DNA of 60,662 nucleotides, filler included, from Hausera hauseri (GCA_046269625.1; 10 parts of 10 records of this genome joined end to end with filler, not necessarily neighbours in it), one strand, 5' to 3'. Positions 5,227 through 53,039 are shown, counted from the whole stretch's first letter. Notes: generated from the letters alone by a model not told the origin. Program-made: numbers and translations.

Positions 5227-8200
5227 CTCTTGAATTTAAGACTGGAAATACATTTATGAAACATAACTTCACTGTAGTTTCCAACATGTCTCGAAGCGCA
5301 ATACTTGGACGTGACTTCCTAAACCAACATAATGCGCGAATATACTTCAATCTTCGGAAAATTAGAATTAATAGCGAATACATCGACTTACAAGATGATA
5401 TTCACATAGCGTCGATTTTGAGAGTCAAGAATAAAGCCACACTCTGTTAAGTTGGTAATAGTCTTCATGAAAGTACTGGAAGGAAAATGATAAAATAACT
5501 GTCGAACCCCTGGCACAAGATGATATCAATAATGAGCCAAGCTTGCAAACCATCCATGGCATAGTACAGTTAAATAGAGAAAGAGAATTTCCTGTCATGT
5601 TGATAAACCGTACGGGAAAAACTATCACTCTCCATAAAGGTTGTGTTATAGCTCAGACAGAAAGGGAAGACAGTAACCATCATATAAATATGAACGAAGC
5701 TAAACTAACCGAGGAAGAACAAAGAAATCAAACAATAAGTTCAAAACAACAATCCATCCAAGAAACAGCCAGTAAAGAACAAAAATACGCGCATCAGGCA
5801 AAACTATTGAGCGAAATAAGACAAGGGATGTGGAATTTGAAAAAAGAAATATCAGTAGCACAAGCTTCAACGGAAGAAGATAGAGTTACAAAATTGCTGG
5901 CAACGTAACAAGCTGATGAAAAATACAAACAAATGATTGAAACCTTTGTGAGAAAACATACGGACATATTTGCATTGTCTGATATCGAACTTGGTAGAAA
6001 GCAAACTGTCGAAATGAAAATTGACACCGGGACTCACGCTCCAATAAGCCTTCGCCAATATCGTACACCATTAGGAAACAGGGAGATCGTAGAAAAAGCA
6101 GTGGAGGAAATGCATAATGCAGGAATTATAGAATGAACCCACTCAGAATGGTCCTTCCCCGTCTTTATTGCCACAAAGAAAGATGGCACACACAGATTTT
6201 GTGTTGACTATAGGGCCCTCAACGCGATAACAACCAATGTTAGTTTTCCCTTACCGCTTATAGACGACATACTTGGCATGTTCGATGAAACCACGCATTT
6301 CACGACACTTGACGCTAGATTCGGATTTTGGAGTATACCGATGGCACCAGAAACAAAAGTAAAGAGCGCATTTTGCACTCATTCCGGACTATATGCATGG
6401 AATGTTATGCTGTTTGGCCTAAAAAGGTCTCCCCCGCCACATATCTGTCGCTCATGAATTGTGCATTAGAAGGTTTGCAAACATTTGCCCTTGCCTACAT
6501 TGATGACATACTGATCTTTACAAAAGGAAACGTGGAAGACTATTTACGCCACATTGAGTCAGTATTCGAGAGACTACGACGTCATAAATTATAACTCAAG
6601 CTTAGTAAATGTGAATTTCTGAAAGAGGAGACCAAATACTAAGGATTTACAATTACGAAGGAAGGCGTGAAACCCGATAGTGATATAGTGCAAGCAATAA
6701 GATCAATGGGCGCACCAACGACTACCAGGGAAGTTAGAGGAATTCTAGGCACATGTGGATATTATCGCAGATTTATCCCTAATTTTTCGGCAATTGCAGA
6801 ACCCATAGTTGCACTTACAAGAAAGTCCGCGAGATTTCACTGGGATGAGGAATGCCAAAAAGCGTTTGAGTATCTGAAGGAAAATTTGTCAGTAGTACCT
6901 TTACTTGCATACCCGAATCCGAACAAACCTTACGTTTTGTATACAGATGCTTCGGAGTACGCCATTGGCGCAGTTTTAGTGCAAAAGGAAGGACAGATTT
7001 AGTCAAAGGGAAGCTGATTACTAAAGAAAAGCCCATATATTTTCTGTCGCACCGGCTCACAAAAGCGCAACGAAAATGGTCAGTCACAGAAAATGAGGCG
7101 TATGTGATTATTTTGCCCTACAAAAGCTTCACTTCTACTTACACAATAGTGAATGTACGATACGAACAGATCATATGACACTCAAAGCTGTGCTACGATC
7201 CGATGTCCAGAATAGAAGAATACAAACATGGATTCTAAATTTACAAAGGTATCAGATGAAAATTGAGTATATACCCGGGTCAGAAAACACGGTAGCTGAT
7301 TTGTTATCGAGAATGCCTACTAGAGTTCACACAGATGTAGAACCTGAAGACAAAGGAGGGACGCCTGACATAGACGACCATACGTTTCAAATTTCAGTCG
7401 TCAACTGGAACGATACGGAGTCAAATGAAACGTATAGTGAACCGGAGTCCGAGCAGAGTGAATTAGAGGATATATGTATAAAAGAAGAACAAAGTAAAGA
7501 CAGCATATTACAACAAATTAAAAGTGAGATGATGTCTACCAATGTAGAGAAAGTCATCAGATGGAAAAAAATATTTGATTGAAGATGATGTACTCTACAG
7601 AATAGATGGAGAAGGAGGGTATCAGTTGTGTATACCTGTTCATTAAAAGGATAGAATATTAGATCAGTAACATGATAAACTTGCTCACTTGGGAAGATAT
7701 TGAACTTATTCGATGATTAAAAGAAAGTATTTCTGGATAAACATGCAAAAGGATATTGCAGAATATATATCAAATTGTCAGCCCTGCAAACTACGTAATA
7801 TGGAATGTTTAAAACACCCCATGCAAGAGCCTGAACATGCAAGATTCCCTTTCGAGAAATTCAGCCTTGATCTATCTGGTCCCCACCCGCCGACAGCGTC
7901 TGGAAATACATACATACTCCATATCGTGGATATATATAGTTGTTGGTCGGAATTGTATCCACTTCCTAGTAAAGCAGCTGAAAATATAGTGGACATTCTA
8001 GTAGAAAAATTTACTCCAAGCTTTGGATGTCCCAGAGAAATTATTACAGACAACGGGACAGAGTTTGTCTACAAAGCCATGAACGACAAGCTTAAAGTAC
8101 TTAACGTGAAACAGATAACAACGTCCTATTATAATCCAGGAGCAAATGGCGTCAACGAATGTCAACACAAAGTTATTTACGATGTTATTACGAAATATGT

Positions 8201-8660
8201 TAAGGATCAACCAGCAGACTGGGATTTATATTAAAACATAGCTCCCATGACATTACGCATAATGGAGAATGGTAGTAGAAAGCATTCTCCGTACGAAATG
8301 ATATTTGGAAGGAAACCTATACTACCACTAGATAATTTATTAACTCCATGGTATCGGTATCAAGGAGATGATTTCCATGAATATTTACTGCGGAAATTAC
8401 ATGAAATTTCAGTCAAGGTCAGTAGAAATGTCAGAAAATCGTTCCAAAAACGCAAAGACCAAAGTGAAGGCAAGACAGTGTACCAAGAATTTGAGATAGG
8501 TGGTAAAGTGTATTATAGTGTGCATCACAGAACGTCAAAAATGCAGAACAAATGAATTCCGGGGTATACGATAATTGAAAAAAAGAGGACCAGTTACGTA
8601 TTTCATCAAGAACCAGATCACAGGTAAAAAAGCAACAGTTACAACAGACTTTTTAAGAAA
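5227..8660 (+). pseudogene. Ty3/Gypsy pol (protease end, RT, RNase H, integrase), degenerate
   Basis: Motifs ILGRDFL; RFCVDYRALN; AYIDDILIF; GYYRRFIPNF; LYTDASEYAIGAVL; YFW..MQKDI..YISNCQPC; IITDNGTEF. Multiple stops and frameshifts. Confidence 0.93.
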
Positions 8661-9864
8661 AGACGACAGGAATTTCCCTGAAGAAAGACAACCAGAAAGT
8701 GCAGAAAGAATACGGAAAGCAAGATATGTAGTACTGCCAGAAGCAGATAACACAGATGCATTAGACGAAGCAAGTATAACCGAAACGCTGACAGAAGAAG
8801 AAAGTGATTCTAGATACGAACGTATAAAACAACATATTTTATCACAAGTAGTTAGAAGGATTGAACCAAGGCCGTAAAATGACCCTAATCCAGCAGATCA
8901 GCAGTCCATTACATATTCAGGTGCACCGTTTCGAAGGAGAAATACGCGAGCAGCTGTTAGAAGAGGCGAGGAATCAGCAATTAAAAAGAGGACGAGATAT
9001 GAGAAGTAGTTCTTATAATGAAAGTGATATTCCGCTATTAGAACGAAAGAAAAGGTTACAATATAGAGAGCAGAGATTATCACAACAAAGAGAAAATGAG
9101 GAAGAAGCAAAAAGTGATCAAGAAAGTAGAACAGAACTGGAGACAGATTCAAGGTTATCGGACATGGACCAAATGGCAAGNNNNNNNNNNATATGTAAAG
9201 AAACCTAATGATAGTGTTAGCAAACAATCCAAAATCCCCATCAGCAAGGCCATGCAATTAAAAAGAAGAATTAATACCACACAGGTCAATGAGATAAGGG
9301 AAACGCAGAAAGAATTCAAGGTAGCAGTGGAAGACAAAGTTGAAGAAATAAAAAGTATTATTCACGCAAAAGATAGAGAAATAGAAGAAATACGAGGGTT
9401 AATTCAAAAGTTGATGGCATCTAGACAAAACACGGAAATAAAATTGAAACAACTTCATAATACTGTCAATGAGAAGGAGAAACTAATAAGGAATCTACAG
9501 AAACAGTTTCAAGACCTGGAAGAAGAACATTCCGAAAAGGTAAGAACGATCACTATATTAAGGAACAAGTTAGCACAGCTGGCAAATAGCAGAACGAAAA
9601 AAAGAGCAAATAATACAGCAAAGTACAATGCAAGATAAGACAGAAAGTAGAGTAGAAAGAATACAAAATAGACAAGAAAAAGCAGAATTTTCTAGCGGTA
9701 ATATTGATCAAGTGAATGCACAAACTAACGTCCAACAGAATCATGATCAATTGCTACAAACGATGTCTCATTTTTTTTATATTAACGTTAGCACAGTTAT
9801 GAGTCATTTAATCAAGAAGCGAATACGATATAGACTTCTTTATTTTGTAAAGAACTTCTTATGA
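8575..9864 (+). other. Charged/coiled-coil ORF remnants 3' of the Gypsy integrase
   Basis: ORFs 8575-8877, 8861-9208, 9096-9638 and 9628-9864 are Glu/Lys/Gln-rich with heptad-like periodicity. Small internal gap at 9181-9190. Confidence 0.45.
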
Positions 9865-12007: not shown

Positions 12008-14740
12008 TTATAAAGAAAATTTAAAATCTAGTTTATTAAAAATATTATCAATAAATGCTATGGGGAATTCATTCAGAATAGCATGTTTATATAACTTATA
12101 TACATTACTTTTTATTTTATTCGAAGAACAAATCTTCATTATACGAAAAAAATAATTTAGTAATATATTTCTATAAACAGAAGTGTGCATACACGAAGAG
12201 AAATTTGTGAAGAAATTAACCTTAAAAGGAAATGAAGTTCTTTTATCATATATATTAAAATTTAAACTATTTCTATTAGATATTGTAATTTTTATGTCTA
12301 AGAAGGAAATAGAATTATTTATCATTTCGTTTTGCATAAGAACAAGTTCTTTTGGATAAGAAAATGGCAGAATTAAATTAGAATTATCTAAATGTATTAC
12401 AATAATATCATCCAAATATCTAAAAATTATCTGATTGTCATAATTTATTTTATATTCATAAAAAACAAGATATAAATCGGCAAGTATGCTTGATGCAGAA
12501 CTGCCCTGTGGAATACCATTAACCTGAAGATAAAGTTGATTATCTTGAAAGAGGTAGTTATTATATAAATTAAATTTTAGAATTTTTGGAAAGATATCTA
12601 CATTTACGTTTGATATTTTATTAATGTATGGCAAATACTCAATAAATAAATGAGTTATAACAGAGTACAGATCATTAATATTGATATTATTAAATAAGTC
12701 TTTAAAGTCATATGTATGTATGTGTGTAACATTTTTTATTGATTTAAGTTTATTTATTAATTGAAAACTATTTTTAATGATAGGAGAAGTTTTAGAGATA
12801 TGCTCATGTAGGGGTGCAAGATACCTTAAGAGTAATTTACTAGCATTATTGTTATAAGATTTACATCCTACAGTTACTGTTCTAAAAGTAATGGGATGTT
12901 TGTGAAACTTTGGTATTATGACCAAATATGGGTAATTTAGATTATCACTTTTAATATTAAGAAGTTTATGAAATGCTAATATTTTTTTATTATTTATTTC
13001 AATTTTTGTGTTTATTTTTTTAAAGATGGGATTGAGATTCAAATTTTCATTTAAATGATTTTTATAATATTTTTTACATATTATGGCATAATTATTGGGT
13101 GCTTTGTCCACATATGTTATTACAAAATTATTTTGTAAATTTTTTATAGCATTATTTAAAGTATGGTAGTTAAGATTTTTGGATTTTATAACAAAATTAG
13201 AAAGAACTGCTTTAAAAGAGTTAAAAAGCATATGTTTCCATTCCAAAAAAAGGTCAGGAATTAATCCATTATACTTAGAAATCTTAAAAATAAATTGTTC
13301 AATATCTAACAGGAATTGTAGCGCTATAGATTTTACATTGTTCTTTGATGGTAGTCTGTATTTAGTCCCAAATCCCATAAACTTTCTAAGCTGTTTATAA
13401 TTTACAATGGTTAAGTCACCAGTGATAATGTGTCCTACATCAGTATTAACATATTTTGCATAAGCAGCATCATCACAAAAACATTGATTTGTATCCTCAG
13501 AGTCTTCCTTAGCAATCACATTATAGTTGAAAATTTTACGACCTAAGGCGATAGGGTATTTGAATGTTTTACAAAAGGTATCTATTTTGGTAGGAAAATA
13601 AATTTTATTTTTATTCAAAAGATTGTTAAGGTTAATTTTGTTAAATACTGGATGTGTGAAATTAATAATAAAGTTTGTATCATAATTATTTTTGGATTTC
13701 TTAGTTGTGAATAGATTGGGTATAGATTTTAGTAATTTTACTCTAAAACAAAAAAGATCAAACATAACGTGAGAGAACTGCATGTTTAGTTTAAGATTTT
13801 GTAGAATATTGAGAATTTTAGGCATATATTTCTTTTTCATTGAAAAAATAAATTTTCTAACTTCAAGCCAGTTATAGGATTTAGAATAGTTATCATTTAA
13901 TTTCAGAATACATTTTGTTGTAGAATTTTTTGAAAAAGAATTATTTGCTTTATGTTTACCTCTTTTTAGCCTATTAGTTTTATTGTATTTAGAAAGATTA
14001 AGTTTTCCATAAATTGAGTTATAATTAGAAATGTGTGTTTTAGAATTAAATAAATTACTGGGATACACAGGTAATGGTTTATTATATATCATTTGGTTTA
14101 ACCCATACGGGTAGCAGGTATTATTTTCCAAAATTAGTTGTGATTCAAAAAATAGCCTTTCTGATGAATTAGGTTTAATATTTAAAATTTCTAATTTAAT
14201 ATTATTAAAGCCGTGTAAATGGAAGTGTTGATATTCTACATTATTGATGGAGTCCAAATATTTCAAATAGTTCTTTACATTTGATCTGTGTAGGTTGATT
14301 CTCAGATGTAGAGGGTTACTCGTTTGTCCAATATATGATAATGGACATGAAAGACAGGAAATTTTATATATACAGTTGTACACTTTACAGAAAGTATTTG
14401 GGGATTTAGATGAGATATAATTTCTAGAATTTGTAGATATAAGTTGTTTGGTATCTGCAAAAGGACAAGTTTTACAACGACTGGAATTGCATGGACTGAA
14501 GCGTAGAGCATGGTTTTGATAAGAAGAAATTGATAGGTCACTGTCTGTCGATCCAAGGGTATCCCTATCAAATATACCCTTGTACCGAGCACAAGAATTA
14601 CCATAAGATAATCCTTTTTTGCCAGGCTCGTATAATGTTTTAGACAATGCCATAAGATTAGATATGTTAATGCATAATACATAATAAAAGCAAAAATAAT
14701 ACGTATAAAATAAAAACAAAATATTATGAAGTAAAGACAT
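12008..14740 (-). mobile_element. Penelope-like retroelement ORF with N-terminal GIY-YIG endonuclease followed by RT (Naiad/Chlamys architecture), 910 aa, uninterrupted
   Basis: Order of motifs: PCNSSRCKTC, then CIYKISCLSCPLSYIGQT..L..R...H and ...E......N..YP.GLN (GIY-YIG), then DKAPNN, IPKFHK, YDFKDLF, GIPQGS, RYLDD, FLDI and YDKR (PLE RT). The true start may be MALSK at about 14653. Confidence 0.9.
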
Positions 14741-16077
14741 ATCTTGGCTATATAATATCCTAAATTTAAAATGGGTGATAAAGATAAAACAAAATACTTG
14801 ATTATAATAATAATAATAATATACACATATTTACATGTCCATGCCTAATCGTATTGATACATTGTCCTCAAAGCGAAAAAAAACCACCATAAGAATCTGA
14901 ATTGCCAGCAATATACAAGTTATAATAATAAATAATAAGATCAATTGATGTTAAATAGCGATTATGTACCAGCATATATATAAGATGAGATAAGAAGTAT
15001 ACATAACTATATTTGCGCAAAACGCAGCATATTATACGTTAGTATTAGAAATCATTATAAGATTTAATTCAAGAACAATAATATGTTGAATGATATAATA
15101 TTCTAAATAATTATTCTAAATCCTATCACTGAATTTATACAGACAAAGCCATAATATTTTTTACTGGTAATAATCTAAAGAATTAGAAATTTCATTTCTG
15201 TATGAACGTTATGGTGCAATATTAGAGAAGAGATTTTAGAGATATTACAACTTTTAAAATGGCCGTTAAAAAGGTATATATTTCATGAATCGAACCGTGC
15301 GCGTTGGTTCAATCCATGAAATACACAAAAGAAAAACCAAACTGAAAGAACTGAAATTCTAATCAAAAACAGTACAATGCGTTGTAAATTTTCCAATAAC
15401 CACAGGAATGACTGGCATAAAACGTGCAAGATCACAGTGATGACAAAGAAATTTAAGTCATAACTATTTATTTTTGAAATACATCTTTATTATATGATAA
15501 ATTTCAAGCTCCACAAAATATTCACTTTTGGTTCTCTTACAAAATATTACATTACATTTTTTTTTCTATTCTATAGCAAACATGGAATTAAATTTTACAA
15601 ACTATTTTGAGAATCTAAATCTTGAAATTAATACCTATATTCTCAAAACATGTTCATTTTGTTTTCATACACATTTTCCAAATTTCAGTACCAGAAACGT
15701 AAGCACTCATAATTAATTTACAATATCNNNNNNNNNNNNNNNNNNNNNNNNNNNNNNNNNNNNNNNNNNNNTTAATTAATTAANNNNNNNNNNNNNNNNN
15801 NNNNNNNNNNNNNNNNNNNNNNNNNNNTTTCTAAGGGCCCATTCGTGTTCCAATTTTAATGTCCTATAAATTTCCTGTAATTACGTGAAACGCTGACTGG
15901 CCGTTAGAAGTCTTGGAATCCTATTTAAGTCACGGCTCATTGCTTCGACCATTAATTTAAAGAAAGTTTCTGGTGCAGCTGGTCTATTCCTTCCTTGTAC
16001 TGTTTTCCCCATCCGTTCTTGGACTATTGGATGAGCGGCTATTTTTCTAAGTCCGGCAATATTTGCATCGGATATCC

Positions 16078-16976
16078 CTAATAGCTCAACTTTAAACGGA
16101 CTTGTTGGATATCGGTCCTTCTCATGAGTTGGTCCCTTCTTAACCCAGTCACCTCTGCATATGACTTTCTGACATGTTTTCGGGGGTTTGTGATGGTGGA
16201 ATATATTTCGGTTCCATCTCTTTCTCTAATACATATCTCGACGGGTATCCCATATCCATCTTCTCCTTTGCCGCAATTTGTTGCTAAGATTCTTATATTA
16301 TGTCCACCTTGGACTAATCTATATGATTGTTTATGTTCGTCTTTTTCTACTTTCGTCGGAGTCTGTTGAAATTCCAAAACTGGCAAACCTAAGTTGCAGT
16401 TTTTTTATAGGTCACTTCGAACATAAGTTTAACAGGAAGGACTGCTACCCTAAATTCCAAACCATAGTCGATACTTTCTAGGCCTTGTCTCTTTAATCTA
16501 AATGTACTAAATCGATACTGATGCCCTTTATTGGAATTCCATGGTTGGCCTTCTATTCTGTAGTATAGTTCCCCGTCGGCTAGGTGTATGTATACTTCTT
16601 TATTTTTATTAGTTCGTTTTGGAATCAGTTCCTTTAGTGAGTAGGCTCTGGCTTGGTCATTTTCACGCATTGCGTAGAGGTAAACGGTTCGATTTTCCTC
16701 TATTATACCGTTTAGGTTATTTGGGATCTCGGTCACTTTTGAAAATTCCATTGAAGTTTTTGCTTGGAGGGCTTCCGTTATGCGTCTGTAGATGGATTTG
16801 GTTTTGGGTATGAATACTGTCGCATGTTCCTTTAGGAAATTGTCGACGCTAATTCGACTGATCATACTTAACATTCTGAAAGAAAATACAAAATAAGGGT
16901 CAATCCTAAAACAAAGTATTGTTTTAAAAATGAACCAATTCTTTGTTTGATGGTGGAATAACCCGATCTGTAGTTG
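16078..16976 (-). CDS. In-frame extension beyond the UGA (putative readthrough domain), function unknown
   Basis: 34 stop-free codons link the TGA (16977-16979) to ORF 16389-16874. ORF 16078-16386 follows after a frameshift in an A-run. Homologous to about 38300-39172. Confidence 0.6.
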
Positions 16977-18400
16977 TCAGGTTATTCTGTCATTAATTTC
17001 ATCCTGTGGTACCATCACCCTTAACTCCCTCTCGGTAATTATATGACGCTTATTACAATAGTTTTTGGTAATCAATAGACAAAACACAATAAAAGTTATG
17101 AGAGCGAATACTGACGTTCCAATAATGGATATTAGCGACAACGTTGTCCATTTAGTCAAATTTTTCGTTTTAGCGGTAGTCGTAATCTCATCCTCCGTTT
17201 TCTTGTTGGTTAGTGGCTTTGTTAAAACAATCTCATTTAACGTCCGTACCGTAAACGTTCTACTTTGTTTGTTCTCGGCGTTCATCTGTATTATGTAGTC
17301 TGTTTTGAGTTTTAAACCAATACATTTGACTCGATGACTGCCTTTAACCAATATTAATTTCTGATTATCGTATAATGTCCGGCAGTTTATTTCTACGTCG
17401 TAGTTAAGGGTTTCCGCCACAATGAAGGTTATTTCGCACTGTTGTGGCCAACATCTTATGGGAATTGTTTCTAGCTCCTTTTGAGGTACTCCCATTGTTT
17501 GTAGGAATTTGATGGAAGTTGAAATAGTTTTATTCTTTTTCGCAGTCGTAATTCTGTTGGTTGTTGTTTCAGGGGGAATTTCCAAAATTGGATTTTCCAC
17601 TTGATAACTTCCTAAGAAAATACTTGGCCGGCTTGGTCGAACTTTATATAAGTCTAATCGAATTCTATATTTATGTCCCTGAGGCAACTTGCAGCACTTT
17701 TTCGGCCTTTCAGTGTCAGTTTGACAGTATTGTTGGTTATAAACTGCTTTGTCTTCTCTCAAGAATTGAACCGTTGTTACTCGCCCTTTAATCAACCGTC
17801 CCTTTGTGTTTATTTGGATACAATTATCTTTTAGATTGTCCATTACACTCGCTATATTTTCTTCTAACATCCGTTTCAATCGGTCGATAGACTGGAGCAT
17901 ATCTTCTAACTATATGTTGATGTAGTCTCCATACGTTTATGGTATAACTAAGTGTGAATTCAGATTTATTTCAGAGTGTACTTCATTACAGTTCGGTAAA
18001 TACGCACGGTAGATGAGGGCGTAAGAATGTTCGTACTCCACGTTGCAGCAAACTGTATCGTCTTCTGGTTCGAATTTTGCAATTAGACTCTGCTCCATTT
18101 AATATGTCTTGGAATAGTATCTGGATTTGTCCCTCATATGATGCTGGTGACCTAAACCCGACACATGGAGCTTCTGGCGAGAAATAATCTAATTTTATTG
18201 CTCGTAAAAATTTTTCGTCTTTTAGTTCTGATTTGTATTCTGTAGTTTTCTCCTTTGGAGATGAAGGCTTTAACGCGATTTTCTTGATTCCATATATATC
18301 GCTCAGCGAATTTTCATCAATCCACTATTGGGCGTTAGACTTATGCGTCGGGGCAGCAATCAACGATAAGGCTACTATTATTTGTGCATAAGATACTGGT
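16977..18400 (-). CDS. Second membrane protein downstream of integrase (signal-like segment, Cys-containing ectodomain, FN3-like motif, TM helix); partly degenerate
   Basis: The integrase frame runs into YAQIIVALSLIAAP and coding continues through 18324-17900. ORF 16977-17900 has GLKLKTDYIIQMNAEN, TM helix WTTLSLISIIGTSVFALITFIVFCLLIT and a short tail ending in TGA. Confidence 0.65.
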
Positions 18401-21400
18401 CTAGTGACAATAGACAAAGTCTTGTATTCTCGCGGTCTTAGATGGTAGTGTTTAGCTGGTCTTATATCTGTCTTAACTACTCTTTGGATTGATACGACTT
18501 CCTCTTTACCGTTTTTGTTGACATATACCGTGGTTGGCGTTGTGCGGATGATTTTATATAGTTTTCTTCCGGTACGTGTTAATTTCAAGGACGTACCCTT
18601 TTTCGCGACTGGGTAATGTATATAAACCCAATTTCCTTTTTCTAGATTATGGGGTTTGGTCTTTTTATCATATTGTTTTTTAAATTGTTCCTGGTATTTG
18701 ATTGATAATGTTTTTGCAACTTCCCAACACTTTTGTAATCTTGTCTGTCGGACTTCGGCAAAATTTTGCTTTAGATCCTCGAGGTTCTTTTTGTACGGTG
18801 TCATGCCTAGATCTGTGGGTAAGATTGCCTCTCGCTCGTACATCATAAAGAACGGTGTAAATCCCGTTGCTGGATGTGGGGTTGTATTAATTGCAAATTG
18901 TGTTCCTTCTAGGAATTCAACCCAGTCCTTTTGGTCTTTTGCCACTACTATTGATAATATTCGAATAACTGTTGCGTTCATTCGCTCGACCATTCCATTA
19001 CATTGGGGGTGGTACGCAGTAGTGGTTAAACGTTCGATTTCGAATATATTAGTGATTTCCTTGAATAATTCGCTTGTAAAGTTCCTTCCACTATCCGTTA
19101 AGATTTGTTCTGGTGGTCCGTATTTGCAGATGACTTTTCTTACCACTGCGTCTGCTAAAGTTTCCGCCTTTTGATCTACTAGTGCCACCAGTTCAACGAA
19201 ATGCGTTAGTCGGTCCAGTCATGTTAGAATGTATCTGTTATTTTTGTGAGTTTTAGGCAAAGATCCTACTATATCCATAGACATGGCTTGCATGGGCCTA
19301 TTTGGTACGTTTTTGGGTTTTAATTCTGCTACGTAGCCTTTCGTTTTCTTCTTTTTTGTCGCGCAAACTTCGCACGCTCCTACCCAATTCTTTACATCAA
19401 TATAGATACTTGGCCAGTAGTATTTATTTAATATCCTTTCCAATGTCTTCTTCCAAGACATGTGTCCAGCTAAATATGAATCATGTTCGGCCATAAGTAC
19501 TTCGATGCGCAATCCTTTTGGAATAACTATTAATCTTCTCCCCTTTCGTTCGTAATATAGGATATTATCTTGGTTCGATGCGTGATATTTATGTCCGTGC
19601 TTCTGCAAATGCTTTTTCAGTTGTCATCCTTTGGGCATTTTGCCCTTTTGTGCAAATTCAATAATTTGCTGAATAACTTTATCTTTATCTTGTTCTGCAG
19701 TGATCCTGATCGTTCTATTTAGGGTTAAGGTTCTTTGACGTTCAATTATTTGTTTGAGTTGCGTTTTCTTCGCTGTGGTAATCCCACTTGTTTTTGTCTT
19801 TAACCGTGATAATGCGTCGGCGTCGACGTGCTTATTACCTGGTTTGTATTGGAATTTGATGTTATATCGTGAGATTTCCTCGATCCAGCGGTTTAATCTA
19901 CATGTCGGGTTGTTAGCTTGTCCTCTCAATGTTGTAACCGCTTTGTGGTCGGTCACTATTATAATCTTTTGTCCATAGACATAGACATTAAAGTGTCGTA
20001 GTGTTTCCTTTACGACTAACGTTTCTAATTTGGTAACCGAGTAATTCTTTTCTGCTTTCTTTAACGAGCGTCCTCCATAAGCTATTGGGTATTTTAGTTC
20101 TTCATGTTCTCGTTTCTGAGCTAATTCATATCCTATACCTTCTTTACTTGCATCCGTTTTAATAATGAATGGTAGGTTAAAGTCCGGATATCTTAAAACT
20201 GTTTCGCTTGTCAAAATTTTCTTCATCTCGTCGAATGCTTTTTGTTACACTCCCGTCCATCTCCATTTAGTTTCTTTTTTGAGTAGGCGATATAGTGGTG
20301 CGTTAATTTCGAATTGTCTGGTGCGTAAGTAGCGTAATACCTACATAGGCCTAACCAGTGTCTTAACTCTTTTTGATTCTGCGGTTCCATACAATTGGAT
20401 ATTTTATTTAGCAGGGATTTATCTGGTTTTGATCCTCTTACTCCGACTGTGTCCGAGGTATGATACTGCGTTCTGTGCCCATTTACATTTTTTTGGATTT
20501 AGTTTCAACCCTGCTTGTTCTAGTCGCATGAATGTATCTTCAATGTATTTTAAGTGTTCTGCCTCTGTTTTTGATGCTATCATTACGTCATCCAGATATG
20601 CGAAGGTGTGGTAGAGTCCCATGAGCATCTTATTCATCATTCTAGTAAAAATAGCTGGTCCTGTGGTGATGCCAAACGGCATAACATTAAATTCGTATAC
20701 GCCATCGTGTGTTTTAAACGCTGCCTTATATCGATCTTCTTCTTCGATTTCTACTTACCAGTATCCCGATTGTAAGTCGAGAATGGTAAACCATTTTGCT
20801 CCCGATAGTCTATCTAAAGCTTCCTTTACCGACGGTAGGGGGAACGAGTCTTTCTTCATAAGCGTGTTTAATGCCAGATAATCTGTGCAAAATTGATGTT
20901 TCGTGGTTCCTTTCTTTTTAACCATAAGTATAGGTGAGTACCATGATCGGTAACGCGGTCGAATTATATCGGCCTTTAACATTCGCTGTACTTTAGTTAT
21001 CTCTGGTTTCAGTGAATGAGGTGAGTACCATTTGGGCATTTTCTATTCTTCTAGGTAGATTTTATCATTGGAGCCTGGTTTCTTCCTTAATGGGATTGTT
21101 AATCTCACGGCTTTTTCTCTACCTATGTCTTCCTCATTTTGTGCAATTATTGAACGGTGTTTGCATATTAATTCGTAAAACTTGCAATACGCCTTAGGAG
21201 AGAATTTGGTTTTGACGTGAGGTGGAAATTCTGCGCACTTATACGGTTTTTCCTCTATTGTTATTGCCGATGCTCTGCAAGTGTGACCCAGAGTAGTATT
21301 AGCATGCAATCTCACGTGGGTTGGTGCATTGTTCACTAATCTTATAGGTATGCGTCCCGTCGCTACCCTACACAGGATATTGCTAAACATGAGGTTTGTA

Positions 21401-21969
21401 TCGATATATTCCTGCGGTTCGAAATACACTGGCAGATCTCCGTCTTGACGAATTTGTGCGAAAATTATCATTTTGGTTCTAGGCGGAATATCTTCGTCTA
21501 CCGGAATCCATACTTCGCCTGGTTTCCTTTCCTTTATTACTTTTGTCCCCTTTATTGGTTCGAGTTTAATTAACTTTCCGTTATGCACGTCGATCGCTAT
21601 GCCTGGTATCTGTTTCAATATATCACAACCCAGTACTACGTCGTCTGTTAATTGGTCCATTATCGCAAATTTATGTTGCAGTGCTTGGCCCATCATACAA
21701 ATGGTTGGGGCCCACCTAAATCTTGGCTTTGATATTTGCCCAAATGCTCCTATGCTACCAGGATCCGACGATAGTGGTGGGCATAGTTGTTCTCGTACTG
21801 TGGTTGGTGTTGATTCGTATTTTATAAACGACTTTTCTGATCCTGTGTCGATCAAGGCATATACCTCCCAGCCTTCAATGTATATTTTAGCGAAGGGCCT
21901 TCCTTCTACTACTGTTCCGTAGCAATTTGACGCTGTCTTTGATTGCTTTGTAGTGGAGACTGTGTCCAT
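18325..21969 (-). pseudogene. Gypsy-type pol: protease, RT, RNase H, integrase
   Basis: Motifs ALIDTGS and VLGCDIL; FCTDYLALN, LDLQSGYW, MPFG and YLDD; KTDAS and VTDHKA; H..AGH..YWP..C..C; LTDSGRNF and YHPQCNGMVERMN. Confidence 0.95.
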
Positions 21970-22295
21970 TTATCGTTATCTCTGGCGATGAAATGATATT
22001 TTGCCTTAATGGTCTTAATTCTCCGTTTGGGTACAAATCATTATTCACCATTTCATTGGCACGACTGTCGATGAGCGGTTCTTGAGGTAGTGGACCTGGA
22101 ATCGAACGCAGTTTCGGGTTTTCCCAGATTGTTGATTTTGATTCTATGTTACGAGGTATCCTTTTCGAGTACAATATCCCGTGGTCGTTTTTTGTTAATC
22201 CTTAGTTAGTAACATTCATTTTCCGTAGTACTCCGTATTGCTTCGTTTTTTCATAAGGATCCTCATACTCGATGGGTTTGCGGTAGGTTTCGAAC

Positions 22296-24172
22296 TTATG
22301 ACGTTACTGATTTCCGGTCGCAGTCTTCATATATTGGCGCGGTCGGTGGCATGATGGGCAGTGGCGCGTTAATCACTGAGTACATCTTATGCATTTTTAT
22401 TCTGGAACCCTCTTCTTCTCTCTTAGGCTCGTCATCGTCTGAATCGTCCCCCCGAGTTATTATTTTCTTGTTTTTGCGTTTATACAGAATCGAGGGCCTC
22501 CATCGTCGTTTGCGATTATAGTATCTGACGTGGCGTTCTACATCATTTTTCCATCGATTTTGTTCATAGGCCTTAAGTATTTTTCGAAAGTGTGTGACAA
22601 TTGCAGTTAAAATTTTGCAGGAAAATCCTGTTAATGTGAATATTTCATATCCGTTGATGATGGCTTGGATTACTGTTTTAATCAATTGGACTAAAAATTA
22701 GATGGCTAGGAATCGATTCAGTTCATAAGTTCTTTGCCGTGGAAATGCTAAGAATTGCCTAAAAGCTTCTGTCTTTTGGCCTGTAAATTCCCTTATTGGC
22801 CGTGTCTCCAAACTTTTCTTCTGATAATCTTTTGATTAGATTTGTCCCGCTTAGTTTACTAGGAGCTGTAGCAGCGCCTTCATTAGGTAAACTTATCCAG
22901 TCGGTTCCACTACATCGAAACATAGGTTCACCTAAGCTCGTTTTGCATTCCTTCAGTATTGTTGGTTCAGTCGAGTTCGCCAGTAATACCATGATGAGTG
23001 GCATTGCTAATCTCGGCATATTCTCATATTCCGGTAGTTCTTGCATGCATCTTTTTTCTTCTACTTGATCGGCACGTCTCTTTCTTCGCATTCATAAGTT
23101 AGTAGGACTTATCCGGTAACTCGTCCAAAAACACCATATTACATTGGTATAATTGGTGATGCCAATTCTGGGTTGGCATAAATTAAGGCCAATTTGGTTT
23201 TCATGACTTCAGTATCTAATTTGCAGTCATTTGTTATCATTCTGGGGTATAACTCTGCTATTCTGGTCTGTCCTTTCTAATAGAAATAGTCGTCTCGATT
23301 TTTGAGGTAATCCTCGATTTGCACATCTTGTGTCTTCAAATCATACGTTTTCATGTTAATTTTGGTTTCTGCAACGAAAAACGCTTTGTAATTGGTAGCA
23401 TACATAACTACATCGCAGCGTGTTAACATATCCTTTCTAATAAACTTCAACCCATGTGCATCCGACATCAATATCGTTCGTGTAGGTTGTTCTGTTACGT
23501 CCTCCCTTGATCTAGTATTTGCGTTTATTTTGTTTGTATAACGCTTTCCGGTTGTCTCATTAAATTTTAACTCTGATTTTGATAAAATTGCAATCCCTCT
23601 TGGAAGGTGGACTCCATACTACAACTGAACTTCGAAACGTGCAAGCACCATTTTGAATGTGACACTTCTGGTTTTCGGTGAATAGTTTGGTAACACTATG
23701 GAACATCACTTTTAAGGATCTTAGCTCGGTTTTGTAAAAATCTACGACTACTATTCCTCCTTCCTGTCATTTTCCTGTGTCATAATCTGCTCCAACGCAA
23801 TAACCGGTGTGCATGTTTAGTTTTCCTACTGCCACTTTGTAGGCTCTAATTATTTTTCCTTCTTTGGCTTCTAACTCCATGCCGTCCCAAACCATTTTAG
23901 CGGTTAACCGGGCTCCTAAACACTGTTGTCTATCCACATTCATTGGAATTAAAGGTGTGGTTGGTTTGATTAATGAAGAATGCCCGTGCATATTACCACA
24001 ATGAGATACGCTGCGGGATCTTCGTATCATACATTCCGTCGCATCCATTGCGATCAATTCACGTTGTTGATATAGTATATAATTCTTTTCTACTGTCTCA
24101 AACTTATGAGGTCTTGCATCTTCACATGTTTCTAAGTCCATCAAGGAATATTTCTGACCCACCTTGAATTTG
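22296..24172 (-). pseudogene. Chuvirus-like (class III, gB-like) envelope glycoprotein
   Basis: Motifs YSLMDLETC; ECMIRRSRSVSHCGNMHGHSS; GYCVGADY; YLKNRDDY; YEC...CMQELP; KGIY; C-terminal IKTVIQAIINGYEIFTLTGFSCKILTAI. These follow the motif order of chuvirus glycoproteins. Several frameshifts and stops. Confidence 0.75.
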
Positions 24173-26160: not shown

Positions 26161-26912
26161 ATCGTCGTAATGGAAAATGCGAGAAAATTGGCCGAGGAAA
26201 ATTCTGAAATGAAAGAAAATTTACAGAAAAATTTGGTACTAATTTACGAGTTGATATTTACGGGCTACAATAAAATAAAAATGCTGTTGTGTTTATTCTG
26301 ACCCTTCTGTAGGACAAGTTGCGTCAATTTGTGGATGGCAGAAAGCGACATGTTGATAAGAAATTTTGTGAGGTTGCTGTTGATTTGAAGAAAATTCGGC
26401 AAGTGCAAGTGAGATAATTTGATGAAGGTTTGCTGCAGAATGTCCAATTTAATATCGAGTTTGTGTGGCGTGTACCAAATATAACCGATAAAAAACGGGA
26501 TGCAGAAGTAATGGAAAATGAAGTTATCGCGAGTGAATATTTTTTTACCCATCGCAATGGATACCGCATGATAATGAGTTTATATCCCAATGGAGATGGT
26601 GATGGCAAAGGAACTCATTTATCATTATTTTTTGTAATATGCAAAGGTCCGTTTGATGATATTCTGCAGTGGCCAATGAAGAAGAAAATCAAATTGGCCA
26701 TTGTTAATCAGCGAACTGGTGGCGATTACAAACCAGTTGAGTTCTGTTATGAAATGGATAAGGATAAAAATGCAGATGTTTATCAAAAACCGACAAATGA
26801 AAAAAACTGTTCATTTGGTTATGAGAAATTCATCAGTTGGAACGAACTACGATCGAATGCTAATATAATGAAAAACGACGTCATTTTCTTCAAATGCACA
26901 ATATCTGACTGA
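26161..26912 (+). CDS. TRAF-family coiled-coil plus MATH domain protein (partial, possibly a pseudogene)
   Basis: FTHRNGYRMIMSLYPNGDGDGKGTHLSLFFVICKGPFDDILQWP...FGYEKFI is the TRAF MATH signature. Upstream coiled-coil exon 26161-26235. In-frame TAA at about 26415 in the exon starting 26313. Confidence 0.85.
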
Positions 26913-29035: not shown

Positions 29036-31153
29036 TATCTTTCATATGGTGAACATTAGGGTTATATTTTGATTCTTTTTGATATTGAGCAAAATAGTTT
29101 TTCTGCATATCAAGATAGAAGGATATGAGTTCTTTTCTTAAATAATCTGATGATTCCCATAAATAATTTGCGCACTGGATACTTTGGTGAATGTCTTAGT
29201 TGTTCCTTTGGCGGGATGTTATTTCGTTTTGATACATTATTGCCATACTTTCTCTGGTCGGATTAAGTCGTTTAATTCTCTCTTTCCATTCTAATTGCAT
29301 TACATGAGTTTTTCTAAGGTCATTAATCATTATTTTCTTGTCTGGAGCTTGATCCAGTGTGATTAAAGGATTTCTATTATCCAAAGGTAGATGAGCTACT
29401 CGGTTAGCGACTGCATATAATTCATATTCCTCCGTGGAAAATTCATGCCGGTCTCTACAAAGTTTATTTATATCACTAAATATTGGAACGACTTCATTAG
29501 CAGTTAAGTATGGATGATCTGTTATTGATTCAACTCCTTTGGCGATTAGCGCTATGATTATTTGTGTCTCTTCAGAAAGTATGTCAAAGGGAGAATAAAT
29601 CTCTTCTTTTATATAATTGATAATGTCTTCATTCTGTGTTTTTAGGAGTAGATAATGCTGATTAAGTTTTGGATCTTTGGCATAAATAACCAAATTCAAC
29701 TGAACTGTAGTATTCAAGTTTAACCATTCTGCATCTTGTTCAAATCCTTTAACAAAGACTTCTTCTGCTCTTTTTTCTTCTTGTAACCTTTTACGTTCAT
29801 AATTCTCTATTTGCCGAGATAACGGTAGGTGTGAGTTTAAGGTGAAACTTTGGGGTTTGTATGTCTCTACTTGTTTAACACAATAATTATCTACACGTTC
29901 AATATCTTTCTTTTCGCATTCGAGTGTCAATGGTTTATTAATTGTTATTTCCTTTAATCGTGCTGTGGTTCGACGTTTTATTAATTTCGGTTCGATAGTT
30001 GAGACTTCTTCTATTATAGTACGTCCCTCAGTTGGAGTAATATCCTCGTCACTATTTGATTGTTCAGCTGTTTTCATATGGAACATTAGATTAACGTAAA
30101 TTAGTAGTATCAGCCAAATAGACGGACTTTCTTGTGTAACATTTAGTATCGATGGAGTGGCTTCTGCTGTTCCAAATAATATAAATGGAATAATGAGTAA
30201 TATTAATATTGGATAAGTTAATCCATTACTAATTATGCTGAACTGGTTTCTGTTGAATGATATCTTTTCATTGGCTTTTCTTTCTTTATTAGTACTTGAA
30301 GTACTTACATCAATAGGTCCGAATGCATTCGTGCTGGCCTTATCACTACCAATTATCCGACCGTTAGAGTCATTACTACGAATATCGACAACAAATCGTC
30401 GCTTTCTTTCTTGTAATGTACGTCTGTCTATTCCTCCATTTTGGATAAATTTTTATTATAATGTAAACTTAAGATTCGCTCATCAAAAGCATTTGTTCTT
30501 CTGAGGCTCCTTGTCATAACTGCTGCTGTTTCTTCATCATTAACTACATTTTGTCTGCGAGTGTTTATTATCCTTTTTCTTTCTTCTTTAAATGGTTTAG
30601 CTATTTCGTCATTATCATTTAATTCACAAAATATTATATGATACCGTATTGCATTTAGTTTACCTAAAAATCTACTTGCATTTACTGTATCAAATCTATC
30701 TATATCCATATAATCCTCTGGGGTCAATATGGTGTTCACATCTCGTCCCAAGTAATCGTTCCACACTATCCGTGCTTCGTCTCCCTCAAAAAGTTTTATA
30801 TCCTCTCGAATAAGATTATCCTTTATAGCCATAATTGTGCAGGTCATCCAACAATTAATCGCATAAGCTTCAGACTGAGAATTAGCATTTAACTCCTTAC
30901 CGTAATACCTAAACAAGTCCAAACATCAATTAGCTATCTTTAGTATTCTTTTAGGTGTTCTACTTGCTATTAATTTCGGAGAGTGTCTTTGAAGATAGTT
31001 AGTTATACTGGTTATAGGGAATGACAGTGGTCTCTTTTGCAAAAAGTGAGTAATTAACATTCGTTCTCTTCGACTTCCGATAAATAGGGGTTGATATTTG
31101 TTTCTATCTCCGTATACTACAGGTTCTTGATTTCTATGCTTCTTAAAATGCAA
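29036..31153 (-). pseudogene. Long degenerate ORF of unknown family with two hydrophobic segments, probably retroelement-derived
   Basis: ORFs 30926-31153, 30428-30922 and 29196-30086 join through one stop and one frameshift. The last frame is open upstream to about 30460 and includes YPILILLIIPFILFG and IWLILLIYVNLMF. Confidence 0.45.
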
Positions 31154-32160: not shown

Positions 32161-32772
32161 AGCTGTTTGTTAATCCACCGTTCAAATTTAAACAAATATG
32201 ACAACTGTATCAATTGGTGAATTCAATTTGCGACCCACTATTTTAAAATTAAAGCACGATTCGCATCCAGTAAAAACATTGAATGTTTGAATTTGTTACC
32301 GCTAACAATGTATCGAAGTACTGGTCGTCTTACAACGATGATCACTCATACAATGGATTCTCTGGTTGAGGGACCGAGCGTACCCGCCCCCGTTGCGCCA
32401 TGTCCCTTTTCTTTTCTCATCTTTACTAATACTAAACATGTCCACACATTAAGGGTGACACACAAAAACAGCTCATATTCTCTATACTGAATTGTCCTTT
32501 TTTGGCTTTTTCGATTTTTATCTTATGAACAACGATCTAACTTTGCAACCTTACGACTCTTTTTCATCCTTTGCGCCCGAAAAATATTTCATCACTCTCA
32601 CGGTCCATTTTTACATCCGTGGTGGATCAGACCTTCATCCTTCTACTGAACACTTAACAAAAACTAGATTTGGTCGTCTTCCTGTCGACAGCACACCAAC
32701 AACTCCAAATCTCCCCTGCACGGATTTTTTCTAGAAAAGACGATTTCTAGTCGTACCCGGCTTCAGTTCCAT

Positions 32773-33648
32773 TTGCAATGGCTTAAAGCCATTCATATTA
32801 CAGATTCCTTTCTGCGGGCTAACAGTTTGCTGCAAATCAGTAATCTGGTTGACATACTCTTTTCTTCAAGCCCGTATGGTATGCTGTATGAATCGGTTCT
32901 ACATATCGCCGACCATTCCATCGACAGCATAATCCAGAAGTATTTTAACGAACACGCCATCGGAAATCAAAAACCATCGGATTTTCTTAAAATTGCCATC
33001 TCGCAATTGAGCTCTTTGGGCGTTACTCCCACAAACAATGCCAATCTTCTTCGTCGGTATTTTCTTTCATCTTTGCCAACCTCTATTCTAGCTTTGCTTA
33101 CTGTAGTAGATGACTCTACTGCCCTCGAAAAGCTTGCCTTATTGGCAGACAAGAGCTTTGATATTCTGCTGTCTAGTAACTCGCAGCCAGTAGTCACAGT
33201 AACTGCTCACACACTTCCAGACAACACGTTATTTGCACAACAACTGAAAATGATGCAGAAACAATTCGATACCTTCCAACAAGCAATTTCTGTGATCACA
33301 GCCCAACTCAGTGACTTCTCCTTGCCTCGAGGAAGCGAAAATTGTATTTCTCATAATCGCAGTGTTTCTAGGCACTCTTGTTCTAAATCTAGGGATGATA
33401 AAATGAGGTGCTTTTATCACAACAAATTCCGCAGAGATTCAAGGAAATGTGTTTTAGGCTGTCGATTCTACGATGTAAAATATGCCATAGACAATCCAAT
33501 CTGCATCTATCACGCAAAGTACCAGTCCAAGCCTAGGTCATGCGTGCCAGGATATAAACATTATAAAAGTAATTCTAGTTCTTTATCTTCGTCTCCGCGC
33601 ACTCACCATTCCTCCTCTTTCTACCAACAAGTCTCAAAAAACCAATAA
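32773..33648 (+). CDS. Gag with tandem CHCC zinc motifs
   Basis: GNQKPSDFL, FLSSLP and LA.LADK (capsid); CFYHNKF....RKC...C and CIYHAKY....RSC. Confidence 0.85.
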   Translation: MQWLKAIHITDSFLRANSLLQISNLVDILFSSSPYGMLYESVLHIADHSIDSIIQKYFNEHAIGNQKPSDFLKIAISQLSSLGVTPTNNANLLRRYFLSSLPTSILALLTVVDDSTALEKLALLADKSFDILLSSNSQPVVTVTAHTLPDNTLFAQQLKMMQKQFDTFQQAISVITAQLSDFSLPRGSENCISHNRSVSRHSCSKSRDDKMRCFYHNKFRRDSRKCVLGCRFYDVKYAIDNPICIYHAKYQSKPRSCVPGYKHYKSNSSSLSSSPRTHHSSSFYQQVSKNQ

Positions 33649-33678
33649 TGCCACCAGATGCTACGGCACATTCTGGTA
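33636..33678 (+). promoter_or_regulatory. -1 ribosomal frameshift signal at the gag-pol junction
   Basis: A_AAA_AAC in the gag frame, a 6-nt spacer, then TGCC/GGCA and ACCAGA/TCTGGT pairings. The -1 frame reads into FLIDSGA. Confidence 0.7.
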
Positions 33679-36600: not shown

Positions 36601-37073
36601 TCTTTAACAACAACAAATCCTACATTCCGAAGAATTTATACTACGTCAAGTTTGTGTGGTTAAAAGATCAATCTCCTTCTAGTTTTAGACCTCAATATGT
36701 TAGCCCGTACAAACTGCTGAATCTTTCATCTCACACAGCAACAATCTTACGCCAAGATAAACCGTACAATGTCCAAGTTTCAAATCTGAAGCCTGCCTTC
36801 TTCATTGACAACTTTCCAGATAACAATTCTACATTCAATTTGGACTCAGCTAGCACTTCTACTGACTTTCTAAACGATTTTGCGCCGGTGCGGCAATCAC
36901 TACTTGATTACGCTCAATCATCATCATTTCCTCCATCCGGCTCACTTCCCTCTCCGTCATCATGCTCACCACCTTCACCTCCTTTCTTGCTTGAATCATT
37001 TTCGCTGTCATTTCCATCAGAAAATATCACACAACAGCCAGCACAAATCTATCGAGTAAGCCACGCAGGGTAA
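33642..37073 (+). pseudogene. Gypsy pol (PR-RT-RH-IN)
   Basis: FLIDSGA and IIGSDFL; IDLHKAYHQI, MPFGLRNA and YIGD (mutated YxDD); ETDHKPL; HLDLVGPLP, ITDQGSQF and HPQANGLLERFHR. Confidence 0.92.
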
Positions 37074-38199: not shown

Positions 38200-39790
38200 A
38201 TACTTGAAACATATATTTTATTTACCAGGATTTGTACAATATAAACCCCAATGGAAATATTTCGTTTTTCTAGTATTTCTTGGATTTTGTATCCAACTAG
38301 GACACATCCGTAAAGACAATGTTTGATTTCGGCACTGACCAATTTAATGTCTTTACTATCCTTTAGATGTTCTTTTTTTATTCCCGTTGGTTTAGAAAAT
38401 GTCTCTCGAATTCTTTTTCTGGTAGCGATAATCTTGAACTAAAGTTCGCTTCCGTGTATTTCTCTAATTGAGACTTCTATCGGAATATAATTCCCGCCGT
38501 CTTCTCCTCCGTAGTTCGTTTTGATCTTTCTCTTTTGGCTTTTGTCTGAACCTTAGGGGGTGGAACTTGTATATAAGGGACATCTTCATAGGTAACTTCC
38601 ACTAAAATTTTTACAGGCAGAGCGGTTATCCTGAATTCCAACTGATATTCCTTCAGGTTTCCACTACATAGATGAAAAGTGCTAAATCTGAATTACCTTC
38701 CTTGATTTTCGTCCCAGTTCTGCCCTGTTATCCGATATTATAGTTCGCCTTCAGCTAGGTGTATGAAGAGACTTTGATTATATACTAGCTCGTATGTAAT
38801 TAATTATTTTAATCTAAACGCTCGGGCATCCGAGTTGTTCCTCATTGCATAGAGTCGCATGGCACGATATTCTCCACTTGTGCATTTAAGATTATTCGAG
38901 ATTCTGCTGGTCTGGCTGAACTCAACGAATGTTTTTTCCTATAATTCAGTTCTAATATAACGATAGATTGACTTGGATTTAGGTACTGGCACAATAACAT
39001 ATTTATCCAGATATTCATTGACACCATGCCTCTTCTGATCTTCGGCTTTCATCACCATGATAGTATTTACCGCTCTAAAAGTAAAAAAATAGAGGTTAAT
39101 CCTAAAACTCAGTACTGTTTTAAACCAAAACCAATTCTTTGATTGATGACGGAATAACCCGATCTGTAATTGTCAGGTTATTTCACCATAGGTTTTGTCT
39201 TGGGGTACCATTACCCTTAATTCCCTTTATTCGATTTTATGTCGCTCACACTGACAGTTTTTGGTAACTAACCGAAAAGTCGCAACTAATAGTATAAGAA
39301 TGAACGTTGTTAGTCCAATAAGTGATAAAATTGGCAAGGTCGTTAATCCAGTCGGTTTTGGGTAGTGATTGGAGTTATTATTTCATAGTCTATATTTTCA
39401 TTTAGACGGGGTTCTGCGTGGATTTCATCCAGAGAGCGTAAGGCGAATGTCTTGTTTCGTTTATACTTCGCGTACATTTGTATTACATAATCCGGCCGTG
39501 GTTTTAATAAGTTACATTCTGTCTGATAACTATTTTTAAAAAATGTCACAATTTGGTTATTGTGCAACGTTCGCCAACTTATATGAATATCGTAATTTAC
39601 TTTTCTTCCACAGAAAACACGATTTTATACTGCTGGATCAAGTGTTTAATAGGTATACTTTCTAATTCTCTTTTAGGTGTTTTTTCACTTGAGAAGTTGA
39701 GTACTCACTTGAGTAGTTGATTTTCTTGTTGTTGCTTCAAGTGAAATTTTCTATACTTGCTCTTCCGGATAGTATCTTCCAGAGAAAAGC
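38200..39790 (-). mobile_element. Diverged second copy of the 3' module of the 15828-24172 element
   Basis: LLKPRPDYVIQMYAK, a TM segment, RELRVMVPQD...IT-TGA-CAA-TTA, QLQIGLF.HQ.KNWF, PKSKSIYR, IHLAEGEL and LEFRITALPVK all align with 16078-17600. Confidence 0.85.
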
Positions 39791-52947: not shown

Positions 52948-53039
52948 ATATTGTAAATGTTACTTTATTGTTATACCAATAAATTTTGTTTGAAAAATCG
53001 TGTTTTGTTCCACCTCAAGTAATATGGAATAAGTATATA

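Follow-up and report, generated by a model that had tools for sequence, protein, structure and literature searches.

We analysed a window of 60,662 nt of DNA from Hausera hauseri (GCA_046269625.1), in which one contig, at positions 15828-24172, carries the remains of a long terminal repeat (LTR) retrotransposon. We consider it probable (roughly 0.7) that this contig is a Ty3/Gypsy copy, now dead, with a glycoprotein gene (env) of the herpesvirus gB/chuvirus type in front of pol, that it likely represents a multicopy Gag-Env-Pol (Burro-like) kind of element, and that it carries at the 3' end a gene for an FN3-like type I membrane protein likely made in a short form and, by readthrough, in a longer one. 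New here is that the stop codon of this membrane protein gene, open reading frame (ORF) 3, is a TGA-CARYYA sequence in two diverged copies and is followed by an in-frame ORF4. It is this receptor-like 3' cassette behind the integrase, and not the env-before-pol layout, that is the less familiar part of the element.

Structure of the element

The window comprises ten short contigs. The joints are artificial N44-TTAATTAATTAA-N44 spacers with a repeat length of 100 nt, so that adjoining window segments are not genomic neighbours. The element is exactly one of these contigs, the fourth of the ten (8.3 kb, minus strand), and its absent ends are thus assembly ends. The contig edges fall inside Env (24172) and inside the 3' ORFs, in keeping with an initial annotation of this DNA, which had described a copy lacking both ends. 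The remaining contigs have animal-type content (BLTP1, TRAF MATH, Penelope and other Gypsy elements). On one strand, the order of the element is Env, PR (protease), RT (reverse transcriptase), RH (RNase H), IN (integrase), ORF3 and ORF4. The parts up to the integrase are as follows.

22296..24172, minus strand: Env, a chuvirus/herpesvirus gB-type (Monjiviricetes) glycoprotein, from Pfam PF24664, hydropathy and motifs; 5' end cut by the contig edge
22295..21970, minus strand: spacer between Env and protease, with an open 104-codon frame at 22201-21890; no long internal repeat and no gag match
21607..21903, minus strand: aspartic protease with the motif LIDTG (Pfam RVP, E 2.4e-7)
21229..21558, minus strand: insert between PR and RT, in the place that the dUTPase-like block takes in Burro; at most a candidate for such a block
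19864..21042, minus strand: reverse transcriptase (YLDD) and RNase H (TDAS) (Pfam RVT_1, E 7.2e-25; RT_RNaseH, E 1.4e-29)
18430..19623, minus strand: integrase with HHCC zinc finger, core and C-terminal part, interrupted by stops (Pfam Integrase_H2C2, E 1.3e-19; rve, E 2.6e-7)

The Pfam family Monjiviricetes_fusion (PF24664) matches three minus-strand stretches of Env, in the order of the model. The first (24171-23770, model 37-159, E 9.5e-12) lies at the contig edge, at position 37 of the 653 of the model; the second is inside 23618-22698 (model 263-396, E 7.4e-10) and the third is 22697-22299 (model 560-611, E 9.9e-6). As Pol families follow, the chuvirus-like Env 5' of pol that had been recognized in the initial annotation is confirmed. 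Env is interrupted by several stops and frameshifts. It includes a furin-like RRKR motif near 23088, a transmembrane (TM) segment near 22712 (identified by hydropathy) and, in the cytoplasmic tail, PTAP at 22340-22360 (minus strand, in the context PPTAPIY), which we take to be a late-domain-like motif. The end of domain II reads GLKF...C...YATNY, which by eye resembles all six of the listed Schmidtea C1a Envs; the motif G-[LM]-[KR]-F...C...TNY is common to these six rows and the contig Env. The insect Env rows shown have TEHP at the position of TNY, and TEHP occurs 90 times in the supplement file of PMC13524379. A search of PDB sequences with the N-terminal part of Env gave no match at E <= 10, and a word-index protein search with the same part at longer lengths found no relative among 289 candidates.

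The families RVP, RVT_1, RT_RNaseH, Integrase_H2C2 and rve occur in the order of a Ty3/Gypsy-type PR-RT-RH-IN, and the DTG, YLDD, TDAS, HHCC and D,D,E-region motifs were all found. The best RT matches (39-45% identity) are to polyproteins with an identical set of Pfam families. No gag family was identified in the 104-codon spacer frame by Pfam search, consistent with the earlier observation that gag is not located between Env and pol. Stops interrupt the pol frame at 21045, 20757, 19626 and 19221, and near 20420-20247 it is frameshifted. Past the integrase the frame runs stop-free into a hydrophobic signal-like segment, the first stop being at 18327-18325, as the initial annotation had noted; a frameshift and further stops then precede the ectodomain and TM helix. 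Stops and frameshifts in Env, pol and ORF3 bear out its description of this copy as decayed. No Pfam or PDB match was found for the insert between PR and RT. It matches weakly (E 0.041) a block of another Gypsy element in the window, which is itself a Pfam dUTPase match at E 0.0028. This other element (5400-9635, plus strand) is decayed, with the dUTPase-like block before RT and a coiled-coil frame after the integrase.

Other copies were surveyed among the contigs of one public sequencing run (X1), at 80% identity or more. A third of the words sampled from the stretch occur in X1, a run possibly related to the source. In total, 21,998 X1 contigs fall on the stretch and cover 30 of 30 bins (1,051 at 99% identity or above, 3,176 at 95-99%, 8,895 at 90-95% and 8,876 below 90%). 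Listed records bridge the junctions between spacer and protease (21812-22190) and between integrase and ORF3 (18354-18477), and a few cross 22296. Together, the number of contigs and the bridging records lead us to read the element as a multicopy family with the layout of this contig. No long internal repeat was found in 15828-24172, and the alignments of contigs from other copies continue through the spacer. None of the 98 Gypsy-type polyproteins retrieved with the integrase lists PF24664, and these polyproteins together with 25 metagenome loci gave no match to the Env, ORF3 and ORF4 pieces at E <= 1e-3. Scans of viral contigs with ORF3, its relative P0099 (see below), the stop-block motif and the ORF4 alignment also gave no match.

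Relationship to described elements

The initial annotation had proposed a candidate new endogenous virus architecture, with Env upstream of pol and a second membrane protein downstream. Families with Env in front of pol have already been described, and the claim to novelty of the env-pol arrangement falls with them. In the planarian element Burro, gag is followed in the same frame by an Env that matches arthropod and fish mononegavirus glycoproteins, and this by pol, in which PR and RT are separated by a dUTPase-like block (PMC6431247, section on Burro). GAG-ENV-POL elements with a gB-type Env are reported from Nematoda, Bryozoa and Platyhelminthes (PMC13524379, citing Sacco 2022), and the entries seen in the supplement of that paper include nine flatworm and ten bryozoan elements. 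The env-before-pol layout therefore needs no new category.

The contig shares with Burro/GYPSM1, in which Env stands between gag and PR-RT-RH-IN according to the section on the element, the position of Env in front of PR-RT-RH-IN, as well as the insert between PR and RT and the presence of accessory ORFs (PMC6431247). Decayed fragments of Burro are described there from Dugesia japonica, and the contig copy is decayed too. Burro differs in that its Gag, BIR, BCL2, MATH and ankyrin domains lie upstream, outside the reach of the contig, and in that neither an FN3 membrane protein nor a readthrough ORF is mentioned 3' of the integrase in the section on it (PMC6431247). Its internal region exceeds 25 kb and its host is a triclad; the contig has 8.3 kb (PMC6431247 for Burro). 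With the gB-type errantiviruses the contig shares a Ty3/Gypsy pol behind a gB-type Env and, by eye, Env domain I-II motifs like those of six Schmidtea C1a elements; unlike them, the contig copy is not intact (PMC13524379, in the parts covering these elements). In those parts Env is the sole membrane protein given for published Gag-Env-Pol elements, and the words accessory, readthrough, fibronectin, splic- and Burro are absent from the main text of PMC13524379.

Anakin, a Pao element, is similar in that the same broad glycoprotein family was captured by an LTR retroelement; it differs in its Pao pol, as that of the contig is Ty3/Gypsy-like (PMC7642597, passages on Anakin). Env of Roo, Tas and Cer-7, three BEL/Pao elements, is placed downstream of the polyprotein in the same passages. 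A BEL/Pao (Anakin) identity was rejected because the glycoprotein is 5' of pol and none of the 18 pieces searched matched a Pfam family that we take to be Pao-specific.

A literature search found no report of a Gypsy LTR element with an additional FN3 ORF, with the limit that the original description of Burro, Sacco 2022 and Repbase may already show 3' ORFs. Under the combined terms, no report of CARYYA readthrough in a retrotransposon was found. The titles and abstracts of literature on transmembrane genes of Burro and Schmidtea retroelements mention no 3' membrane protein, and the sections seen of PMC11410931 hold nothing further on the structure of Burro elements. In published surveys of Gypsy elements with an Env, the genes annotated are gag, env and pol; to these, the region of the contig 3' of the integrase adds a receptor-like gene and ORF4 behind a conserved RNA signal.

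A membrane protein gene behind the integrase

The features of ORF3 are as follows.

16977..18408, minus strand: ORF3, type I membrane protein in which a signal peptide is followed by what are probably three beta-sandwich domains, a Thr-rich linker, a TM helix at 17135-17058 and a short tail
17241..17465, minus strand: membrane-proximal domain of ORF3 (domain 3), predicted seven-stranded FN3/Ig-like sandwich (pLDDT 50-59; Foldseek, VIA)

In the contig copy ORF3 is broken by a stop at 18327, a frameshift near 18080 and stops near 17936-17910. A signal peptide, a single TM helix (hydropathy 2.76 at 17126) and a tail are indicated by hydropathy and by a helix in the model. Also present are sequons, Cys pairs and a Thr-rich linker. 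HMMER, run in full against 1.84 billion representatives, returned four matches. Two of them are genuine relatives, both unnamed ENA proteins: P0099 (479 aa, E 4.6e-39) and P0100 (189 aa, E 7.3e-33). The other two, P0101 and P0102, are fish protocadherins that match only around the TM helix and were rejected. P0099 is intact and maps to the window in two frames from the signal segment (18408) through the stop at 16977 (tblastn E 1.9e-56); its residues 10-120 and 113-479, up to the last residue, are the parts that match ORF3. Since an intact protein matches from signal peptide to stop, we conclude that ORF3 represents a genuine gene, of which the contig has a broken copy. The second membrane protein downstream of pol in the initial annotation, with signal, ectodomain and TM helix, thus has a counterpart of the same layout. 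A word-index protein search with ORF3 at near lengths found no relative among 812 candidates.

P0099 has the repeat motif C-x-x-L-x4/5-Y at three domain ends. Similarity between its domains 1 and 2 exceeds that of 1000 of 1000 shuffles, and similarity between domains 2 and 3 that of 973. Domain 3, the only domain of ORF3 modelled in this way, was built with a five-row alignment; a Foldseek search with the model returned mostly FN3 chains (E 0.015-0.09, probability about 1.0). A single-sequence model of the whole of ORF3 (pLDDT 44) gave no meaningful fold match. No viral fusion protein is among the listed fold matches of domain 3, which models at low confidence as an FN3/Ig sandwich with mostly FN3 matches. 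Judged by the models, ORF3 resembles a receptor-like accessory protein of the FN3/Ig type more than it does a second fusogen, and the latter reading was rejected. It is likely a host-modulating or attachment factor, of host-derived appearance, and we prefer host modulation to attachment solely by analogy with the other extra domains of Burro (PMC6431247, section on Burro).

A conserved block at the ORF3 stop and an in-frame ORF4

The following features lie at and beyond the ORF3 stop.

16875..16991, minus strand: conserved RNA-level block, with the stop TGA at 16979-16977 followed by CAACTA (CARYYA), a 12-nt spacer, a predicted stem and a polypyrimidine-AG to 16876
15881..16976, minus strand: ORF4 region; 16976-16389 in frame with ORF3 right behind the stop, other-frame pieces at 16404-16078 and 16225-15881
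38310..39766, minus strand: copy B, an ORF3-stop-ORF4 cassette on another window contig, 807 of 1249 aligned bases identical

Copy B is diverged, intron-less and also decayed. Both DNA copies have the stop, CARYYA and an open in-frame ORF, and the sole gap is of 3 nt. Four ORF3 homologs terminate at the same residue. Identity at third positions is 31 of 38 in the block (16991-16875) vs 124 of 284 in the flanking coding sequence (Fisher p 9e-6). The predicted stem, in which 16964-16955 pairs with 16906-16897, starts 12 nt past the stop in both copies, with a folding z of -3.6 in the contig copy (A).

Both CAR-YYA and 3' stems have been reported as signals for readthrough, and SIRE1 is a retroelement with frames separated by a stop (PMC2194720, PMC3159437 for the signals and PMC2194720 for SIRE1, in the passages concerned). 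Like the readthrough sites of tobamoviruses and SIRE1 in these passages, the site in the contig combines a stop, CAR-YYA and an in-frame ORF with a predicted 3' stem after a short spacer; it differs in that its stop is UGA and ends the tail of a membrane protein, not pol or replicase, and in that the spacer is 12 nt vs 7-9 nt (PMC2194720, PMC3159437). The conservation of third positions, the shared predicted stem and CARYYA point to programmed readthrough of the ORF3 stop, a prediction from sequence to which we give even odds.

ORF4 is 52% identical between the contig copy and copy B. Identity at the three codon positions of the two copies is 63/77/35% in domain 3 of ORF3 and 59/77/44% in the body of ORF4, patterns that are indicative of protein (purifying) selection. 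The second ORF4 piece is 32% identical to copy B (E 3e-9). As the frame of copy B continues past the ORF4 stop of the contig and the next piece is homologous, ORF4 probably exceeds 195 codons, and the pieces are likely parts of one longer ORF. No credible match to ORF4 was found in Pfam, PHROGs, NCBIfam or PDB, and the ORF4 model stays below pLDDT 50.

Alternative interpretations

A number of observations count against our interpretation, and they are given here with the alternatives on which they bear. At the stop, the comparison is of two DNA copies only. In copy B the stem has a z of -1.3 (21 of 200 shuffles) and is not significant; 18 of 18 cells of the stem are paired, with two one-sided changes and no two-sided change. 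CARYYA, which was noticed after the fact, stands behind one of 451 stop triplets of the element, vs 1.1-1.3 expected. With one occurrence equal to chance expectation, it is only the position of the motif that counts.

The block is also the best splice-acceptor-like site in both copies, with an ATG next to it. ORF4 could thus be a separate accessory gene that is expressed, like those of complex retroviruses, from a subgenomic RNA formed by splicing. The block would then provide the branch point, the polypyrimidine tract and the AG acceptor, and a comparable acceptor immediately ahead of the signal peptide may serve ORF3. By a simple pyrimidine score, no AG of copy A (580 in all) scores higher than that at 16876, and none of copy B (119) higher than its counterpart; a YTRAY-like branch site is present, and an ATG lies 1 nt (A) or 15 nt (B) past the AG. 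The AG at 18401, ahead of the ORF3 signal peptide, ranks second of 580. This acceptor score is a crude home-made count, however, and hydrophobic codons also yield T-rich tracts (rank three is inside the Env TM segment). Moreover, the block is conserved for some 100 nt upstream of the AG, most strongly at the stop, and all four ORF3 homologs have a common terminal residue. We regard splicing as possible but doubtful, and as unlikely the case that readthrough and splicing both occur or that neither does. A direct splice that would join the ORF3 tail in frame to ORF4 was rejected, as the phases disagree: 0 for the two conserved GT sites of the tail, 2 for the acceptor.

For ORF3, similarity between domains 1 and 3 of P0099 is not above chance (652 of 1000 shuffles). 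Foldseek gave no match to domain 3 at E <= 0.001, and in VIA-align (Z 6.3-8.1) FN3 is tied with Ig-like folds other than FN3. Mean pLDDT in the alignment-based modelling of ORF3/ORF4 is 36. In both Atlas searches ten of the ten best family matches are in one FN3-containing family or clan, with scores of only 0.90 and 0.80. The Pfam fn3 match of ORF3 has an E of only 0.12, and the PDB profile match to an FN3 monobody an E of 1.7; all of these indicate FN3 too, but each of them weakly.

Another reading, with ORF3 as a virion attachment protein beside the gB-type fusogen, follows the initial annotation in taking the element for a Gypsy-type virus that has two surface proteins, both encoded in a single long polyprotein. 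The topology of ORF3 (signal peptide, sequons, Cys pairs, Thr-rich linker, TM helix) would be coherent with this, the integrase frame of the contig is stop-free into the ORF3 signal, and the contig of one other copy aligns there without gaps. However, P0099 opens with a Met of its own, and the nine residues that lead from it to the shared signal segment are unlike the integrase end in the window; an integrase-ORF3 fusion is thus not established for the family. In addition, the published Gag-Env-Pol elements have Env alone in the parts of PMC13524379 that describe them, and the extra domains of Burro named in its section of PMC6431247 are host-regulatory. As for the polyprotein, the open frame from integrase into the signal-like segment stands, but fusion to ORF3 is found only in a broken copy, and Env, spacer and protease lie in three different frames in the contig. 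A single polyprotein including Env and Pol is therefore proposed rather than observed. Overall, we consider an attachment protein encoded in this way to be improbable.

Gag, LTRs and upstream domains are outside the contig, and the possible flatworm link of the element comes from a comparison of motifs by eye. The sense strand has 37-39% A in all five regions of the contig, and env, pol, ORF3 and ORF4 correlate with one another in 3-mer content at 0.89-0.92, but another Gypsy element of the window correlates equally with these regions (0.88-0.92). Composition does not separate the two and alone is weak evidence. Among the X1 contigs listed, none spans the whole stretch. This last point, the short-contig assembly of a highly repeated family and the frame breaks in the spacer between env and pol would fit a chimera, in which a nested insertion or misassembly joined an env fragment, pol and a host receptor gene. 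We consider this very improbable given that there is no long internal repeat, that other copies align across the spacer and across the integrase-ORF3 junction, that ORF3-ORF4 recurs as copy B on a separate contig, and that the order of genes matches published elements.

Proposed expression and implications

If the contig is a dead copy of a Burro-like element, as we favor, active members would, by comparison with Burro, translate Gag-(accessory domains)-Env-Pol as one polyprotein. The ectodomain of Env, presumably a trimeric class III fusogen, would enter the endoplasmic reticulum; past the TM segment, the enzymes would remain in the cytosol, to be freed by the protease. ORF3 may be produced from its own start, from a spliced RNA or through release from the end of Pol by signal peptidase. 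Some ribosomes, in a step whose chances we see as evenly balanced, would pass TGA-CARYYA with the aid of the 3' stem and add a cytoplasmic domain of about 200-360 residues (ORF4). One gene would thereby give a tail-less receptor-like form and a long form. More tentatively, and on balance rather unlikely as a whole, the element may be an invertebrate Gypsy virus with a gB-type fusogen and an FN3 surface protein for attachment or receptor mimicry, in which readthrough of TGA-CARYYA switches between tail-less forms and forms with a large cytoplasmic domain. No accessory receptor under such recoding control came up in the literature searched.

If readthrough is real, a recoding site would toggle the signalling tail of a membrane protein within an element of 100 nt, and these retroelements would resemble complex retroviruses in having accessory genes on both sides of pol. 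The proposed system would also bear on how elements with gB-type Env attach to or manipulate host cells.

Other features of the window

Two long frames (165 and 418 aa) at 29199-30925 (minus strand) have hydrophobic stretches, an A-rich sense strand and no Pfam match, and could be part of a large retroelement. At 26418-26909 (plus strand), a TRAF-type MATH domain (E 1.7e-32) lies behind a coiled-coil-like frame; it may belong to a host TRAF or be a captured domain of the Burro type. Also present is a decayed Gypsy element (32668-37070, plus strand) with a C/T-rich sense strand unlike that of the other elements. An open frame of 2097 codons at 44898-51188 (minus strand) matches the C-terminal part of BLTP1/KIAA1109 (E 8e-105), and is either an unusually long exon or part of an intron-poor host gene.

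The endonuclease of canonical Penelope elements is usually C-terminal; in an intact-looking Penelope-like ORF of 940 codons at 12011-14830 (minus strand), GIY-YIG is N-terminal to RT. Polinton-like frames lie at 40102-44387, 51291-56078 and 56179-60662; among them are fragments of a DNA polymerase B of the protein-primed type (PF03175, E 3.9e-5 at 53799-54296). The Polinton-like region includes an inverted duplication of 385 nt (51291-51675 / 53556-53940).

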